This document shows, one piece after another, positions 4,424-32,687 of a DNA stretch of 64,000 nt; position 1 is the stretch's first letter; each line of letters begins with the position of its first letter. The position numbers were made by a program, and so were the translations under genes. Where the stretch lies: assembly GCF_056746865.1 (NCBI RefSeq), contig NZ_JBWKMP010000003.1; one strand, given 5' to 3'. Under the pieces are notes generated by a model. The model saw only the letters and a program-made list of their open reading frames with translations. It did no database searches and was not told the DNA's origin. Source of the DNA: a plasmid.

Positions 4424-5452
4424 ATGGGTGAACTAGTTATCTCCGGCGGTTCTGGTGGTTTTCTGCGCGATATTGGCACCGAATACCAGGAAGCTGCAAA
4501 AAACTTTATGCAGTTCATGAACGACCAGGGAGCTTATGCTCCAAATACGCTTCGAGATCTCCGTCTGGTGTTTCATTCCTGGGCGCGGTGGTGTAATTCG
4601 CGCCAGCGCCCCTGGTTCCCGATTACGCCGGAAATGGCCCGCGAGTATCTTCTCCAGTTGCATGAGGCCGATCTGGCCTCGACCACCATTGATAAGCACT
4701 ATGCCATGCTTAACATGCTGCTTTCGCAATGTGGCCTCCCGCCGCTGTCGGACGATAAAAGTGTGTCTCTGGCCATGCGGCGCATCCGGCGCGAAGCGGC
4801 AACGGAAAAAGGCGAGCGAACAGGCCAGGCTATACCGTTGCGGTGGGATGATCTGAAATTGCTCGACGTGTTGCTGTCCCGTTCCGAGCGGCTGGTGGAC
4901 CTGCGCAATCGGGCGTTTCTCTTCGTGGCATACAATACCCTGATGCGTATGTCAGAAATCTCGCGCATCCGCGTCGGAGATCTGGACCAAACAGGTGACA
5001 CTGTAACGCTGCATATTTCACACACGAAGACCATCACGACCGCCGCCGGACTTGATAAGGTGCTTTCTCGTTACACTACCGCCGTACTGAACGACTGGCT
5101 GGAGGTGTCCGGACTTCGAGAACATCCGGACGCGGTGCTATTCCCGCCAATACACCGCAGTAATAAGGCCAGAATCACGACAACGCCCCTTACTGCACCT
5201 GCAATGGAGAAAATATTCAGCGATGCCTGGGGGTTGCTGAACAAACGAGATGCCACGCCGAACAAAGGAAGATACCGGACGTGGACAGGCCATAGTGCGC
5301 GTGTTGGTGCGGCAATTGATATGGCTGAGAAACAGGTGTCAATGGTCGAGATCATGCAGGAAGGTACATGGAAAAAGCCCGAAACACTTATGCGATATTT
5401 GCGCCGTAGCGGGGCATCCGTTGGTGCAAATAGTCGCCTGATGGACTCATAA
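4424..5452 (+). CDS. dre: Cre-family tyrosine recombinase Dre
   Basis: 342 aa, colinear with Cre from the N-terminus; RHR and catalytic-Tyr region present (TGHSARVGAA..LMRYLR); paired with the rox site. Confidence 0.85.
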   Translation: MGELVISGGSGGFLRDIGTEYQEAAKNFMQFMNDQGAYAPNTLRDLRLVFHSWARWCNSRQRPWFPITPEMAREYLLQLHEADLASTTIDKHYAMLNMLLSQCGLPPLSDDKSVSLAMRRIRREAATEKGERTGQAIPLRWDDLKLLDVLLSRSERLVDLRNRAFLFVAYNTLMRMSEISRIRVGDLDQTGDTVTLHISHTKTITTAAGLDKVLSRYTTAVLNDWLEVSGLREHPDAVLFPPIHRSNKARITTTPLTAPAMEKIFSDAWGLLNKRDATPNKGRYRTWTGHSARVGAAIDMAEKQVSMVEIMQEGTWKKPETLMRYLRRSGASVGANSRLMDS

Positions 5453-7516: not shown

Positions 7517-8323
7517 GTGGAAAATACCAAGAACATTCAATATCGCTTGCGTAACGGCCTGCTGGTGGATGTAAACGATGATATGTCCCTGCCCTTTGCC
7601 ACCATTGAGCGAACCATCCTTACATACCTGGGCTTAGACGAAGAGTTAGATAGTGAGAATGGCATTGCTATCTGGCGTGACGGAAAAACGGGAGTCAGAC
7701 GTTTTATTACGGCAAGAGGCATTCAGTGCACACAGGAAGAATTGTTTGAACTGGCGCAGTCTTATGGATGCATCGCGTTAGATCCCCTGTATGACCCAGC
7801 CATAGCACAACAACTCATTCGAGAGCTGTCGCTTTCGGTCACGCCAATAATCTTCCGCCAGGGAACCTTAACCGGCACATGGCGTGTAGAACGCATCTCT
7901 AAATATCAGCCATATAATATCCATTTGAACGGCACTATTACTGGTGTGGATCAACCAGTAGCAGGTGAAAACAAAGACCTGGAACTTGCAGTAATGATGG
8001 CAGCTTGTCGCGTGCTTGGCCTGGGCAAGCAGATGTTTATCCATTTCCCAAACGGCGCGGAAGGCGAAGTAGAGCTGATTTCCTGCGACTTTTCCTTAAC
8101 CTGGATGCTTGATGAATTCCTGGACAAAACAGTATTCCGTGCTGAAGAACTGGATATGTATGTCACCTCAAGTATTCCTAATGACGTGAAAGTTGAGGCC
8201 ATCGCTACAGCCAGGGCGAAATGCCGTGCGGCGATTGCAGAACAGGCCAAAGAAGAACAGTCCGATGAAGTCGCGGCAGATGTGGAGGCAGAGGTAGCGG
8301 AGGATGCTGATGCTGACGCCTAA
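7517..8323 (+). CDS. hypothetical protein with acidic C-terminal tail
   Basis: GTG start with GGAG Shine-Dalgarno; 268 aa; ends in an Asp/Glu/Ala-rich tail. Confidence 0.45.
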   Translation: MENTKNIQYRLRNGLLVDVNDDMSLPFATIERTILTYLGLDEELDSENGIAIWRDGKTGVRRFITARGIQCTQEELFELAQSYGCIALDPLYDPAIAQQLIRELSLSVTPIIFRQGTLTGTWRVERISKYQPYNIHLNGTITGVDQPVAGENKDLELAVMMAACRVLGLGKQMFIHFPNGAEGEVELISCDFSLTWMLDEFLDKTVFRAEELDMYVTSSIPNDVKVEAIATARAKCRAAIAEQAKEEQSDEVAADVEAEVAEDADADA

Positions 8324-9410
8324 AAACATCACCGAATTACCAGAGTGGAGAGAGCTGGTAAGCAAATATAGCCATGACTGGGCATTAGCAGCAGAAGAGT
8401 TGATGGGTGTTAAGTTAACCCACCAGCAAAAGCTAATTGTTGAGGCGATTCAACAAAAAGGTTCAGCAGTCAGCGTCACCACTCCTGAAGGGATAGGCCA
8501 AAAGACGGTTATCGCTATAATTAGTATTCTTTATACAATCCTGATGCCTGAGTCTAAAACGGTTATTGTTTCCCCAAAGTTCTATAATTGTCGCAGGCAA
8601 GTTATCCAATACATAAGTACGTATTGGGATAGAGTCAGTAACAGAATCCCATTGCTGGGAGAATATTTTAAAGTCGACGGAAACGGCATCAATCATCGTT
8701 ACCGGGAATATTGGGGCTGCGAAATTAAGCCATATCACCGAAATTATGAGGAAGGTTTCGGTGGATATTATGCTGAACATCTTTTAATCATTGTTACGGA
8801 GGCGGCTCTTGCTGGCGATCGGCTATTCAGCATGTTAAGAGCATCGTTAGTAAGTGACGATTCACGTATACTTTTAATGTCCGCTCCTTCAGAGGAGGAG
8901 CATGGACACTTTTACGATTCCCATCATGGTCGTGCAAAATCAGAAGAAAATCCATGTGGTATTTATACAGCCATCAAGCTGAACGCAGAAGATACCCCCA
9001 TTATTTCACAAGGTTATCTTGATAACATTGCAGAAATATATGGTGGTAAAAACAGCGATTACTACCGTCGCATGATTCTTGGTGAGTTTCCAGGTATTAG
9101 GGAGGCTGTTCTTGAATCAGATATGCCGAAAACAATGCGCTTTTCGATGCCTGATGGTAGTGAATGGATAATGCCATTACGAGTGATAGCCCGGCATCAT
9201 GCACAGCACCACGCCAAAAAACATGGCGTTACAACATTGGAGTGGTTGAAATCGCACACCATTCCACTCTTCACTGCAGATCACAATGCTATCGTTGAGT
9301 GGGCAAAAACAATTCCGTGGGAGAATGTCGCTGAATACGCCCACATGCTAAAACCGCCGAAAGACAGGCAAGAAATTAGCTGGCTGACAGCAGAAAAAAT
9401 CATTGAGTGA
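8304..9410 (+). CDS. terminase-large-subunit ATPase-domain paralog with degenerate Walker motifs
   Basis: Clear similarity to the 1460-2968 ATPase domain (THQQKLIVEAIQ.. vs SHQQQQIIQSVQ..; FYDSHHGRAKSEENP vs FYESHHSRAKAEGNP), but Walker A reads TTPEGIGQKT and Walker B IVTEAA; no nuclease-domain counterpart. Confidence 0.6.
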   Translation: MLMLTPKNITELPEWRELVSKYSHDWALAAEELMGVKLTHQQKLIVEAIQQKGSAVSVTTPEGIGQKTVIAIISILYTILMPESKTVIVSPKFYNCRRQVIQYISTYWDRVSNRIPLLGEYFKVDGNGINHRYREYWGCEIKPYHRNYEEGFGGYYAEHLLIIVTEAALAGDRLFSMLRASLVSDDSRILLMSAPSEEEHGHFYDSHHGRAKSEENPCGIYTAIKLNAEDTPIISQGYLDNIAEIYGGKNSDYYRRMILGEFPGIREAVLESDMPKTMRFSMPDGSEWIMPLRVIARHHAQHHAKKHGVTTLEWLKSHTIPLFTADHNAIVEWAKTIPWENVAEYAHMLKPPKDRQEISWLTAEKIIE

Positions 9411-9416
9411 TAGTAG

Positions 9417-9447
9417 GAAGCCCGCCTGGTTGAGCGGGCTTCTTTTC
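9417..9447 (+). terminator. intrinsic terminator after the rightward dut operon
   Basis: GAAGCCCGC-ctggttga-GCGGGCTTC hairpin followed by TTTTC. Confidence 0.5.
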
Positions 9448-9826
9448 AAATATTGGAACCATATAGTTCACGTAGTTTATCCGCTACTGAAGATACGGGG
9501 ATTTCACCAGTTGCAGCCCCCACCGCAAGTTCCACCAGCACGGGAGAATCATATACCTGTATACCGTTACGGCGTAGAAATAGCAGCGCACTGTTTAGCG
9601 CGGTACGCTTATTGGCATCATTGAATATATGCCCTCTCGCTGTAGCCACCAGGTAGGTGGCGGAGACTTCGAAAAGGTCGGTGATCTCTTCGTAGGCAAC
9701 TCTGGCCTGAACTCTCCCGATAATGGCCTCTGCCCTGCCCGGATCTGACATGCCAGGCAGGCCGCCGTAGCGGCTTATATTCGCATCATGAAGCGCAATA
9801 AGTTCTTCCGGTGATATATGCCTCAT
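9446..9826 (-). CDS. doc: Doc toxin (Fic/Doc family kinase)
   Basis: 126 aa; Fic motif HIFNDANKR; close match to P1 Doc as recalled; overlaps the phd stop. Confidence 0.9.
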
Positions 9827-10047
9827 TATCGGTTAACCAGTTCCTTGTTGGTGGAGTCCAGGGTGTCAAACAGGGATGCAAATTCAGCATCCAGCGCCGC
9901 TTTTTTGTAGGCTTCGAAAGTAGCCTTGCTGACAATTACTGCTGGCTCACGGCCTCTGCGGGTGATTTCAACCTCTTCCCCGGCTTCAACATTGTTGAGC
10001 ACTTCAGAAAGGTTGCCACGCGCGGTACGGAAGTTAATGGATTGCAT
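9826..10047 (-). CDS. phd: Phd antitoxin
   Basis: [32 protein letters not shown]...; start taken at the second ATG of the track ORF. Confidence 0.85.
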
Positions 10048-10119
10048 AAACACCTCGTGTACTCGTTATGTGTACACAATTATAAACTTCACAGGCATAA
10101 AGCACCAGCACTTTGCAGC

Positions 10120-30172: not shown

Positions 30173-31361
30173 CTTCCTGAAAAATCAGGACGGGCGATAT
30201 ATCACTGACGGCCTGTCCTCTAAGGATTTCACACGCGTATTTGAACTCATCAGGAAAGAGCAAAACCGCAAACGCCGCCAGGCGAACAGGACACTCACGC
30301 CGGGCAGGCTTAGGAATAAATCAGCCGAAGACATTCTTAAGCTGGGGAAAAAGAAAGGCGGCACGTTCTTTACGCGTGACGATCTGAAAGGCTTCGAAAA
30401 GCTGCGAAGCAAAGCACGCGAAAAATATGACAGCAAGACGGCTGGCATTACATACGCACAACTGGTAGCGTCCAGCCAGGCTATCGATATTAAGCGAGCA
30501 AATAACGCCGTAGACGACGGTTCTGGTATCAAAAGAGCTACGCCCGTATCTCTTCGTCACAATGTGATTAATATCCGCGTGGAAGCGTCCGATATATCCG
30601 TTCACCAGCACCACATTGTCCGGGTACGTTTTGAAGAATGGGATCAGATGGTCGATGACATCGCAGAAGACGATAAATCAGCCCTGAAAGTCACAAAATC
30701 ACTGTGTGCCGGGCGAGTGTCTTTCGACTGTGACTGCGGTCGCCATCAATACTGGTATCGCTACATCGCCACTGCGGGTAACTTTGCCCTGGCCCCGCCA
30801 AAAGAATACGCCTATCCAAAAGTTCGCAACCCTAAGCTGCAAGGCGTCGCCTGTAAACATGTGATCCACTCAATGACACGACTACAGTCTGCCAGTTGGC
30901 AGATGAGTATTGCTCGTGCGCTACAAAAGGCTGCAACGCAAATTGCATTTGGTGACGATCGCCGCCGTACAACCAAACACTTCTCAAAAGAAGACGAGAA
31001 GGAGTTTAATCGCAATCGTAGCAGTAAAACGAACGTTGAAGCCGCCAAACGCGAATGGAGGCTCTATCAGAAGCGCCAGGCAGCTTTAAGTACAAAACTG
31101 GCGAAGGACAACGGCAAGATCGACAAGCTACGTGACCAACTGACCAGGGCCAGAAAGTTGTCAGACGCACAGAAAAAACGAGCGGCAGCAAAAGAAGCGG
31201 CCTTGCAACGTGAGAAACAGAAAAACAAGGAGCTTCAGCAACGCCTTGCCGATCAGTTCGCACTGAAGAAGCAGGCGTTCATTGATGCGCTGGTCATGGC
31301 AGGAACGTCACCTGGGCAAGCTGAAAAAATGTTTATGGAGTACGTGAAGAAAGGTTCTTGA
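30165..31361 (+). CDS. SWIM-zinc-finger-like protein with basic coiled-coil C-terminus
   Basis: CDCGRHQYW...CKHVIH fits the CxCx(n)CxH pattern; C-terminal ~120 aa Lys/Arg/Gln-rich. Confidence 0.45.
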   Translation: MPDFLKNQDGRYITDGLSSKDFTRVFELIRKEQNRKRRQANRTLTPGRLRNKSAEDILKLGKKKGGTFFTRDDLKGFEKLRSKAREKYDSKTAGITYAQLVASSQAIDIKRANNAVDDGSGIKRATPVSLRHNVINIRVEASDISVHQHHIVRVRFEEWDQMVDDIAEDDKSALKVTKSLCAGRVSFDCDCGRHQYWYRYIATAGNFALAPPKEYAYPKVRNPKLQGVACKHVIHSMTRLQSASWQMSIARALQKAATQIAFGDDRRRTTKHFSKEDEKEFNRNRSSKTNVEAAKREWRLYQKRQAALSTKLAKDNGKIDKLRDQLTRARKLSDAQKKRAAAKEAALQREKQKNKELQQRLADQFALKKQAFIDALVMAGTSPGQAEKMFMEYVKKGS

Positions 31362-31395
31362 TTGACAACAAAGGCGGTCATACAGACCGCCGAAC

Positions 31396-31776
31396 TCATA
31401 CACCAACCAGGCTTTCAAGAGGAATGCCAAACTGGGAATGTAAACGACGAATCATAGGTAACGTTAAATTTCGTGTTCCATTTAGCACTTCGTAAACACG
31501 ATTTGACTTACCAATCGCCGGTTCCAGATCCTTCACGGTCAGCCCTTGCTGTTCCATACGGAATTTAATGGCCTCAATAGGTGATGGTGGCTCAATTGGG
31601 TAATGTTTTTTCTCGTACTCCTCAATGAGAAGACACATGACCTCAAAGAAATCACCTTCCGGGGTGTTCATTTCCGGTTCGTTATCGAACATCGGTTCGA
31701 CCGCACGCAGTGCGGCCTCATAATCTTGTTCTGTACGGATAGGTTTAATGTTCATTAATTCCAAAGGAAAGCCCAC
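31396..31776 (-). CDS. HigA/YgjM-like HTH protein (extra antitoxin-like regulator)
   Basis: MNIKPIRTEQDYEAALRAVE.. N-domain plus C-terminal HTH (GKSNRVYEVLNGTRNLTL). Confidence 0.5.
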   Translation of the reverse strand: MGFPLELMNIKPIRTEQDYEAALRAVEPMFDNEPEMNTPEGDFFEVMCLLIEEYEKKHYPIEPPSPIEAIKFRMEQQGLTVKDLEPAIGKSNRVYEVLNGTRNLTLPMIRRLHSQFGIPLESLVGV

Positions 31777-31805
31777 TTGTTAAGTGGGCTTTTTGTATGT
31801 GTTTA
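31777..31805. terminator. bidirectional-looking hairpin
   Basis: AAAGCCCACTT-gtta-AAGTGGGCTTTTT. Confidence 0.35.
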
Positions 31806-31811
31806 ACTATA

Positions 31812-32150
31812 TCAGGCTGCTTTTTTATTCAGGTTCCGCTGAGAAATAAATTTTTCAGCAGTATTGATACGACTTAACTCTTCCTGAACGCGCATATCAT
31901 TTTCGACTTCCCACAGGTCTACTGCGGTCTGAAGATTAATCCAAAAATCTACAGAAGTATCGAATGCTTTTGCCAGGCGATATGCCATATCCATCGTTAG
32001 CTTACGATTGTTATTAACAAGAGCACTTACGGTGTTACGATGAACATGAAGTATTTCTGCTAACTCGTTGATCTTAAGCTCTAACGGCTCCAGGTATTCG
32101 TACAGCAGGATATCACCTACAGTCGTCGGTTTTCTGGTTGCCTGTTTCAT
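31812..32150 (-). CDS. higA: HigA antitoxin (HTH_XRE)
   Basis: TVGDILLYEYLEPLELKINELA...DFWINLQTAVDLWEVEN follows the HigA pattern; immediately downstream of higB. Confidence 0.7.
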   Translation of the reverse strand: MKQATRKPTTVGDILLYEYLEPLELKINELAEILHVHRNTVSALVNNNRKLTMDMAYRLAKAFDTSVDFWINLQTAVDLWEVENDMRVQEELSRINTAEKFISQRNLNKKAA

Positions 32151-32221
32151 TTTTTGCCCTTACTAGCGTGCGTATTAAGTGGACTCTGGTCAGTACCTGG
32201 CCCATCCGCCGGGTATTTGTT

Positions 32222-32524
32222 TTAGTATTTGTGAGGGTCGAGATACAAGTCCTCGGCCTTTCCGTTAACCCACTTAAAAATTAACCTGTATTGCTTATTC
32301 ACCCTTATTGATGAATAGCCGTTTAGCTTCCCTGACAATTCCTCATACCGATTACCTGGTGGTGATCTCAAGTCCTTCCAAGTAGTTGCAGCATTGATAA
32401 TATCCAGCTTCCGCAACAATGTAATCTGAATATCAGAAGGTATCTTTTTGTGTGGTATTGAAAATTCAAAAAAATCATCAAGCCACTCATCCCTGAAATT
32501 CTTTATGTTAATCTTTTTGCTCAT
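32222..32524 (-). CDS. higB: HigB toxin (RelE/ParE superfamily)
   Basis: 100 aa; C-terminal RVNKQYRLIFKWVNGKAEDLYLDPHKY matches the HigB pattern. Confidence 0.7.
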   Translation of the reverse strand: MSKKINIKNFRDEWLDDFFEFSIPHKKIPSDIQITLLRKLDIINAATTWKDLRSPPGNRYEELSGKLNGYSSIRVNKQYRLIFKWVNGKAEDLYLDPHKY

Positions 32525-32687
32525 CGATCATTTTATCCTCCATGATTATTAATGAATGTCATAATGATAGCGCACTGTTGCACCGTGCGCAAGTGCATAT
32601 TGTAACAATTCCCCTCCTCCATCCAAAATCACAATCTCCCGAAAATCTTCCTTTCGATACCTGATAAATCGACCTTTGAGGACGCTT

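Follow-up and report, generated by a model that had tools for sequence, protein, structure and literature searches.

An orphan HigA-type antitoxin gene on a D6-like phage-plasmid of Escherichia coli: very probable origin by toxin swap and a possible role in trans-immunity

We examined a 64,000-nucleotide stretch of plasmid DNA (contig NZ_JBWKMP010000003.1 of assembly GCF_056746865.1; hereafter the window), focusing on three co-oriented, minus-strand open reading frames (ORFs) that exactly span positions 31396–32524. The first two, higB1 and higA1, form a complete toxin-antitoxin (TA) module, and the third, termed higA2 here, is the subject of this study: an intact antitoxin gene of the HigA type that stands without its own toxin and that very probably reached this state through the replacement of one toxin cassette by another. 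Over this region, the window shares 91% identity with Escherichia phage D6, itself a P1-related plasmid prophage, and its source is a D6-like (P1-related) phage-plasmid of E. coli. D6 carries the equivalent genes as orf70-72, with annotations reading RelE-family toxin for one and ‘HigA family’ antitoxin for the other two, and homologues of the P1 tail genes 7 and 25 flank them; in D6-like plasmids, the slot between these two tail-gene homologues houses a TA module. The assignment of both helix-turn-helix (HTH) genes to the HigA family is therefore already present in the D6 GenBank record, while a paper on D6-like plasmids names only ‘the higA-higB system’ (PMC6799933). An E. coli plasmid of 89.8 kb (NZ_JBTZPF010000006) is near-identical to the window and displays the identical arrangement.

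The initial annotation had described the first two genes as a HigB/HigA pair with the toxin first, a description that profile searches fully bear out. The higB1 gene (32222–32524, minus strand; 100 amino acids) encodes a RelE-superfamily HigB toxin of the Rts1/PF05015 type, matching the Pfam family HigB-like_toxin (PF05015) over its full length (positions 1–91 of 91, E = 1.4e-34) as well as phrog_3066, ‘toxin of TA system’ (E = 2e-35), and sharing 76% identity with a toxin that certain E. coli strains encode upstream of ybaQ. Its cognate antitoxin gene, higA1 (31812–32150, minus strand; 112 amino acids), scores 102.5 bits on the NCBIfam model TIGR02607 (antidote_HigA; cut-off 47.7), also matches phrog_1381, and encodes a protein 78% identical to YbaQ of E. 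coli K-12. The toxin gene lies upstream of the antitoxin gene—the inverted, toxin-first order—with a spacer of 71 nt between them. The promoter and leader of this higBA1 module occupy 32525–32654 (minus strand), ending at the left cassette junction (~32654/32655). A scan of this interval for the sigma-70 consensus gave no match, and an inverted-repeat search located the palindrome GCGCACTGT-N3-ACCGTGCGC at 32570–32590, a candidate HigA1 operator. Between higA1 and higA2 lies a G+C-rich hairpin (31766–31794, no strand assigned) that is part of the higBA1 cassette. With a folding energy of −15.5 to −16.4 kcal/mol (z = −2.6) and independent detection by a terminator scan, this hairpin is probably the higBA1 terminator; its minus-strand tail, UUUCCUUUGG, probably renders termination only partial. 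The hairpin is present in higBA1-type loci and absent from loci of the higBA2 type, described below. Relatives of this first module are common on chromosomes: a search of 5426 genomes located ybaQ-like DNA at 4833 chromosomal sites, most strains having ybaQ without a toxin and a minority carrying, upstream of it, a RelE/ParE toxin 76% identical to HigB1 (L022, 1208–1549; L023, 1194–1873). The host chromosome thus carries, in YbaQ, an orphan homologue of HigA1 that might blunt HigB1 addiction.

The third gene, higA2 (31396–31755, minus strand), encodes a 119-residue HigA of the YgjM type with an N-terminal domain and a C-terminal HTH_3. The listed ORF began at a GTG (31776); this start was rejected in favor of the ATG at 31755, as all homologues begin with MNIKP or MxIKP. 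In Pfam, HTH_3 (residues 64–116) was the only domain detected, and an NCBIfam search of the protein returned no match. Among proteins of solved structure, the best match is to the HigA (YgjM) proteins from E. coli K-12 and Shigella (5ifg_B and 5ycl_A, E = 2e-8, residues 7–113), HigA2 being ~17 residues shorter than the K-12 protein at the N-terminus. The profile search thus places the third co-oriented gene, as had been predicted, among HigA/YgjM-like genes and not among genes unrelated to HigA. In K-12, HigA is reported to clamp HigB while its HTH binds DNA. What needed correction was the description of higA2 as an ‘extra copy’: HigA1 and HigA2 share 28% identity across 54 HTH residues only (E = 0.002), which rules out a duplication and makes the two proteins members of different HigA families. 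Just past the higA2 stop codon, a terminator-like hairpin, GGCGGTCTGTATGACCGCC then TTTGTTGT (31373–31391, minus strand), marks the end of the three-gene unit. Its sequence is shared with a sibling plasmid of the higBA2 type (L015), and the distance from the higA2 stop to the next gene is 34 nt.

Elsewhere, proteins of the HigA2 type come with a toxin. We use the name higB2-higA2 (higBA2) for the pair formed by a PF09907 HigB toxin and a YgjM-type HigA. In every context of higA2 homologues that was opened (81–95% amino acid identity), a toxin gene of 100 amino acids ends 2–5 nt upstream; these contexts include the chromosomes of Kluyvera and Xenorhabdus (with a PF09907 HigB_toxin), lambdoid prophages of E. 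coli, and small plasmids, among them one of 41 kb. HigB2 matches PF09907 HigB (E = 4e-34), K-12 HigB (5ifg_A, E = 1e-7) and the PADLOC profile PD-Lambda-2_A (E = 1e-40). In E. coli lambdoid prophages, the module adjoins the immunity region and is present at ~150 chromosomal sites in the 5426 complete E. coli genomes searched; its antitoxin is 95% identical to HigA2, and its toxin, WP_000692026.1, stands at 90% identity. The phage collection yielded the same picture, with a toxin alongside in 31 of the 33 records that carry the HigA2 type—the two exceptions both being phage D6. Closer to the window, a PLSDB tblastn search with HigB2 retrieved ~20 plasmids of 80–97 kb from E. coli, Salmonella, Shigella and E. 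fergusonii that carry the toxin at 89–91% identity, and all five sibling loci inspected (L015, L016 and L019–L021) have higBA2 flanked by the same two tail genes and lack higBA1 at this position. The paired loci also share their regulatory architecture: a palindromic operator, TAGTCCCA-N3-TGGGACTA (the operator of the family, GTCCCA-N3-TGGGAC), lies between the −35 and −10 elements in all of them, and two operators of the form (A/T)TCCCA-N3-TGGGACTA precede higB2 in the five siblings (O1 and O2, ATATCCCAGCATGGGACTA and TTGTCCCATATTGGGACTA). In the cognate promoters (L011, 4650–4700; L015, 3423–3503), the −10 element is located only ~8–10 nt before the toxin start codon, which suggests a near-leaderless higB2 mRNA and an operator overlapping the core promoter. 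A further observation concerns DNA divergence: the prophage and window higA2 genes (L011, 5001–5360, versus 31396–31755) are 95% identical as proteins and only ~80% identical as DNA, and ~62 of ~78 synonymous sites differ between the prophage and D6-like genes (saturation). Synonymous saturation at this level of protein identity reflects either a constraint unusually strong for an antitoxin or a shift in codon usage.

The match of HigB2 to a defence-system profile has a counterpart in HigA2, which matches PD-Lambda-2_B of PADLOC (E = 6e-43) over profile positions 1–119 of 402. PD-lambda-2 is an experimentally shown defence system, the B component of which joins a HigA-like HTH to a C-terminal peptidase (Vassallo et al. 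2022, PMC9519451). Accordingly, higA2 could be imagined as a decoy that imitates the N-terminal, HigA-like part of PD-lambda-2B to disturb abortive infection by that system, or as a truncated PD-lambda-2B gene, all the more since proteins of ~400 amino acids that are 48–59% identical to HigA2 in this domain are true PD-Lambda-2_B matches. Yet the stand-alone, toxin-paired form of 119 amino acids is the widespread, ancestral state—in Enterobacterales it comprises more than 100 clusters of 113–134 amino acids at 76–93% identity—and the 34 nt that follow higA2 leave no room for a peptidase remnant. As for a decoy, specific interference would call for more than the ~50–59% identity that HigA2 has to the PD-lambda-2B domain. 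PADLOC gave no match for HigB1, so that no PD-lambda-2 A component lies upstream of higA2, and PD-Lambda-2_C had no match among the four proteins scanned. We regard both versions of this explanation as very improbable.

In the window, both the toxin and the operators of the higBA2 type are missing. tblastn searches with four cognate-type toxins found no HigB2-like protein in the 64-kb window (best E = 0.54), nor did a search of the whole near-identical 89.8-kb plasmid (best E = 0.53), in keeping with the initial annotation, which had seen no second toxin next to the third gene. Alignment with paired loci reveals no toxin remnant either, since DNA homology begins at the higA2 start codon. The operator GTCCCA-N3-TGGGAC has only chance-level matches in the window and in the whole sibling plasmid, each with 2–3 mismatches and inside coding sequence. 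The higA2 locus therefore lacks two features of a complete TA module, namely an adjacent cognate toxin and an upstream operator, and higA2 itself qualifies as an orphan antitoxin gene in the usual sense of an intact gene with no cognate toxin on the same replicon.

The absence of this operator also bears on the other function that had been suggested for the third gene, i.e., that of a regulator. HigA2 could have been recruited to control higBA1, the downstream gene orf73 of D6 or other phage-plasmid genes, in the manner of the third gene in three-component TA systems such as paaR-paaA-parE; its HTH_3 is intact, the gene is co-oriented with higBA1, and several database records annotate the protein as ‘transcriptional regulator’. 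However, the ancestral operator of the family is found neither in the window nor on the sibling plasmid, and the higBA1 promoter bears a different palindrome (32570–32590). Besides, higBA1 and orf73 persist in siblings in which the HTH half of higA2 has been deleted, and orf73 is absent from the window. These observations weaken the suggestion to the point that we consider local regulation improbable.

How the orphan arose can be read from a comparison of natural alleles. In alignment A4, the window and the higBA2-type siblings are collinear on both sides of an exchanged segment: a stretch of ~0.4 kb in the siblings, comprising the promoter, two operators and higB2, is replaced in the window by ~0.9 kb (31759–32654, minus strand) comprising the promoter, higB1, higA1 and the hairpin. 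According to the same alignment, one junction coincides with the higA2 ATG and the other falls after ...CAGGTATCG (~32654/32655). The antitoxin is common to both states; the same protein accession (WP_021551809.1) occurs in paired contexts (L015, plasmid CP069886, with the HigB2 toxin WP_021551810.1) and in orphan contexts (L014, L017), and the orphan allele of L017 differs from the paired allele of L015 by 1 nt. Because higB2-higA2 is the widespread pair, replacement of higB2 by higBA1 is the parsimonious direction. Irrespective of that direction, the higA2 gene of the window is an antitoxin gene parted from its toxin by a cassette swap. The reading of the third gene as an orphan antitoxin, put forward in the initial annotation, thus gains support from the identical protein paired with HigB2 at the same locus in siblings and from the 95%-identical protein in prophages. 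A limited literature search found no earlier description of an allelic toxin swap at the D6-like locus.

The orf73 gene (242 amino acids) follows higA2 in D6 (L001, 4490–5218) and in many siblings (e.g., L002, 2232–2960); in the window, the interval 31361–31396 does not contain it. It exists as two alleles of roughly 70% identity, and all four combinations of toxin module with presence or absence of orf73 occur. The higA2 alleles are mosaic, with orphan and paired ones intermixed. Taken together, the four combinations and the mosaic alleles indicate that recombination among D6-like plasmids is frequent and suggest that these plasmids meet and recombine in the same cells. The orf73 product matches only PHROG families of unknown function (phrog_8191) and has no PADLOC match; by eye, its sequence suggests hydrophobic segments near the N-terminus and a C-terminal half resembling a coiled coil. 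We also considered orf73 of D6 as a partner toxin for higA2 and rejected it, as orf73 occurs with truncated higA2 and higA2 occurs without orf73.

For the present function of higA2, we tentatively propose trans-immunity to HigB2, that is, a role in anti-addiction and plasmid competition; judged from sequence comparisons, such a role is a real possibility, if one we would put at slightly below even chances. In the lineage of the window, an unrelated complete module (promoter, higB1, higA1 and hairpin) would have replaced the promoter, both operators and higB2, leaving behind an intact higA2 without promoter or operators of its own and presumably served by read-through from the higBA1 promoter. 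Some HigA2 produced from the higBA1 transcript could then bind HigB2 that reaches it in trans from incompatible sibling plasmids or lambdoid prophages, and possibly also repress rival higBA2 modules at their operators. A plasmid carrying higBA1 and higA2 would thereby be immune to post-segregational or abortive killing by HigB2 whenever it displaces a higBA2 plasmid or a prophage module is activated, with HigB1 meanwhile keeping the host addicted to the plasmid. That HigA2 would neutralize HigB2 in trans is inferred because the same protein is the paired antitoxin in siblings. Competing elements that share the host range, i.e., sibling D6-like plasmids and lambdoid prophages, carry the matching HigB2 toxins, and strain FWSEC0003 carries both an orphan-bearing plasmid and a prophage higBA2 module. 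Anti-addiction and plasmid competition are established models, as is the use of orphan antitoxins in counter-defence by T4-like phages (PMC7354431; bioRxiv 10.1101/2024.07.11.602962). We hold the combined statement—origin by swap together with trans-immunity—with moderate confidence, just on the favorable side of balance. A bolder version, in which the poison was swapped and the old antidote kept so that higA2 is an active weapon against incompatible D6-like plasmids and resident prophages, is more speculative, and we give it about one chance in three. If it holds, a plasmid with higBA1 and higA2 would displace a higBA2 sibling, or settle in a host with a higBA2 prophage, unharmed by HigB2, and this immunity would be one-way, since the rival cannot neutralize HigB1.

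The proposal of trans-immunity has to be weighed against the simpler view that higA2 is a decaying relic, a functionless leftover of the toxin replacement that is heading for loss. Several patterns speak for retention. All full-length higA2 copies examined have an uninterrupted reading frame, free of frameshifts and stop codons, and pairwise ratios of non-synonymous to synonymous substitution rates (dN/dS) among orphan alleles are 0.06–0.10. Within a clade consisting of orphans only (D6, CP031917, CP085065 and pYU39_89), 12 synonymous and 6 non-synonymous segregating sites were counted, a significant predominance of synonymous changes (P = 6e-5 against neutrality) in a set whose alleles recombine with paired ones.

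A number of observations weigh on the other side, against trans-immunity and in several cases directly for a relic. Given the mosaic alleles, the signal of purifying selection may have been acquired in part while the allele was still paired. The orphan-only clade has slightly more amino acid changes, with non-synonymous to synonymous counts of 6:12 versus 4:19 in paired alleles, a difference that is not significant (Fisher P = 0.29), and constraint may be somewhat relaxed there. Only 18 of 112 higBA1-type PLSDB plasmids keep at least 80% of the queried region; the remaining records that were listed (n = 22) all match only from query position 275, which leaves an N-terminal ORF of 66 amino acids without the HTH, as in CP027309. 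Since most higBA1-type siblings are thus truncated, an intact higA2 is dispensable. This truncation stems from one recombination event that imported a divergent orf73 allele and removed the HTH half of higA2, and so differs from scattered decay. Expression is another difficulty: a consensus scan found no promoter of higA2 itself, and with a strong terminator-like hairpin directly upstream and no promoter-like site, expression must depend on read-through and may be low. Finally, plasmid and chromosomal higA2 are found together in at most ~5–7 genomes versus roughly 3 expected by chance, an estimate that rests on summary counts only (265 places in 258 genomes) and that indicates no clear enrichment. 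On balance, we consider it rather unlikely that higA2 is merely a relic, though this is an explanation to be taken seriously.

The same truncated siblings argue against a further idea, namely that HigA2 is a back-up antitoxin that also neutralizes HigB1. The adjacency of the genes, their probable co-transcription and the RelE-like folds of both toxins would be compatible with such cross-neutralization. HigB1 (PF05015) and HigB2 (PF09907) nevertheless belong to different families, HigA1 and HigA2 resemble each other only in the short HTH stretch noted above, and most higBA1-type siblings do without a full-length higA2; we deem a back-up role extremely improbable.

Other genes of the phage-plasmid also deserve mention. 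D6-like plasmids carry several counter-defence genes, including one annotated as belonging to the Thoeris anti-defence Tad2 family (sibling plasmid L024, 41136–41711, just beyond the window) and DarA-type antirestriction genes, which provide a context for an antitoxin role of higA2. Within the window, two ORFs on the minus strand (9826–10053 and 9446–9826, together 9446–10053) are positioned like phd and doc of sibling plasmid L014. From this position and from the L014 annotation (Phd/YefM antitoxin, death-on-curing toxin), the phage-plasmid probably carries a second addiction module, of the P1-type phd/doc kind, besides higBA1. Adjoining it is an ORF of 368 amino acids (8304–9410) within a segment of ~1 kb that has no counterpart in NZ_JBTZPF010000006, where the blastn blocks skip 8294–9368; this segment resembles a small variable insertion.

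Genome surveys often turn up orphan antitoxins, the origin and anti-addiction role of which are rarely clear; a 2020 review noted that anti-addiction use ‘remains to be demonstrated as a common usage’ (PMC7354431). At the D6-like locus, the origin is readable from natural alleles, with paired, orphan and truncated states at one locus in one host-sharing phage-plasmid family. This allele set amounts to ready constructs for testing plasmid competition and anti-addiction, as well as the restriction of phage-plasmids by PD-lambda-2-related prophage HigBA. Even if the orphan is inert, the locus still documents the replacement of a TA cassette by recombination at exact gene boundaries.

Set beside known systems, the first module resembles the Rts1-type HigBA and the E. 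coli locus formed by a toxin gene and ybaQ: higB1-higA1 is full-length and toxin-first, with 76% and 78% identity to the chromosomal toxin and to YbaQ, respectively. It differs from the chromosomal locus in residing on a phage-plasmid, in being inserted in place of another toxin gene and in its 71-nt spacer. The third gene, in turn, is of the type of K-12 HigB/HigA (YgjN/YgjM; 5IFG) and, more broadly, of the family of PF09907-HigB toxins and YgjM-type HigA antitoxins that includes the modules in the immunity regions of lambdoid and Stx prophages, with which HigA2 shares its domain layout of an N-terminal domain followed by a C-terminal HTH. As in the K-12 type, its homologues follow a PF09907 toxin in toxin-first order, with a palindromic operator in the paired promoters, whereas the window locus is devoid of the toxin, promoter and operators that go with higA2. 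The three-component systems of the paaR-paaA-parE kind are a poor parallel, in that higBA1 persists without the HTH half of the third gene and has no HigA2-type operator in its promoter. With PD-lambda-2, the likeness extends to the N-terminal HigA-like domain of PD-lambda-2B, matched by HigA2, and to PD-lambda-2A, matched by the missing HigB2; in contrast, the window lacks a peptidase domain, an A component and a three-gene operon of this kind, and in PD-lambda-2 it is B that is toxic. The closest parallels are orphan antitoxins such as the chromosomal CcdA of Erwinia chrysanthemi facing CcdB of F, Dmd of phage T4 facing RnlA and LsoA, and the orphan antitoxin-like enzymes of T4-like phages facing DarTG1, each of them, like HigA2, an antitoxin without its own toxin. 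As in anti-addiction modules, higA2 is carried by a mobile element, and the matching toxins are found on competing elements in the same hosts. Unlike those orphans, it has a traceable history, namely the allelic replacement of a toxin at one locus, and sits behind a different, complete TA module—an element ordinary in kind, the origin of which is unusually clearly traceable.

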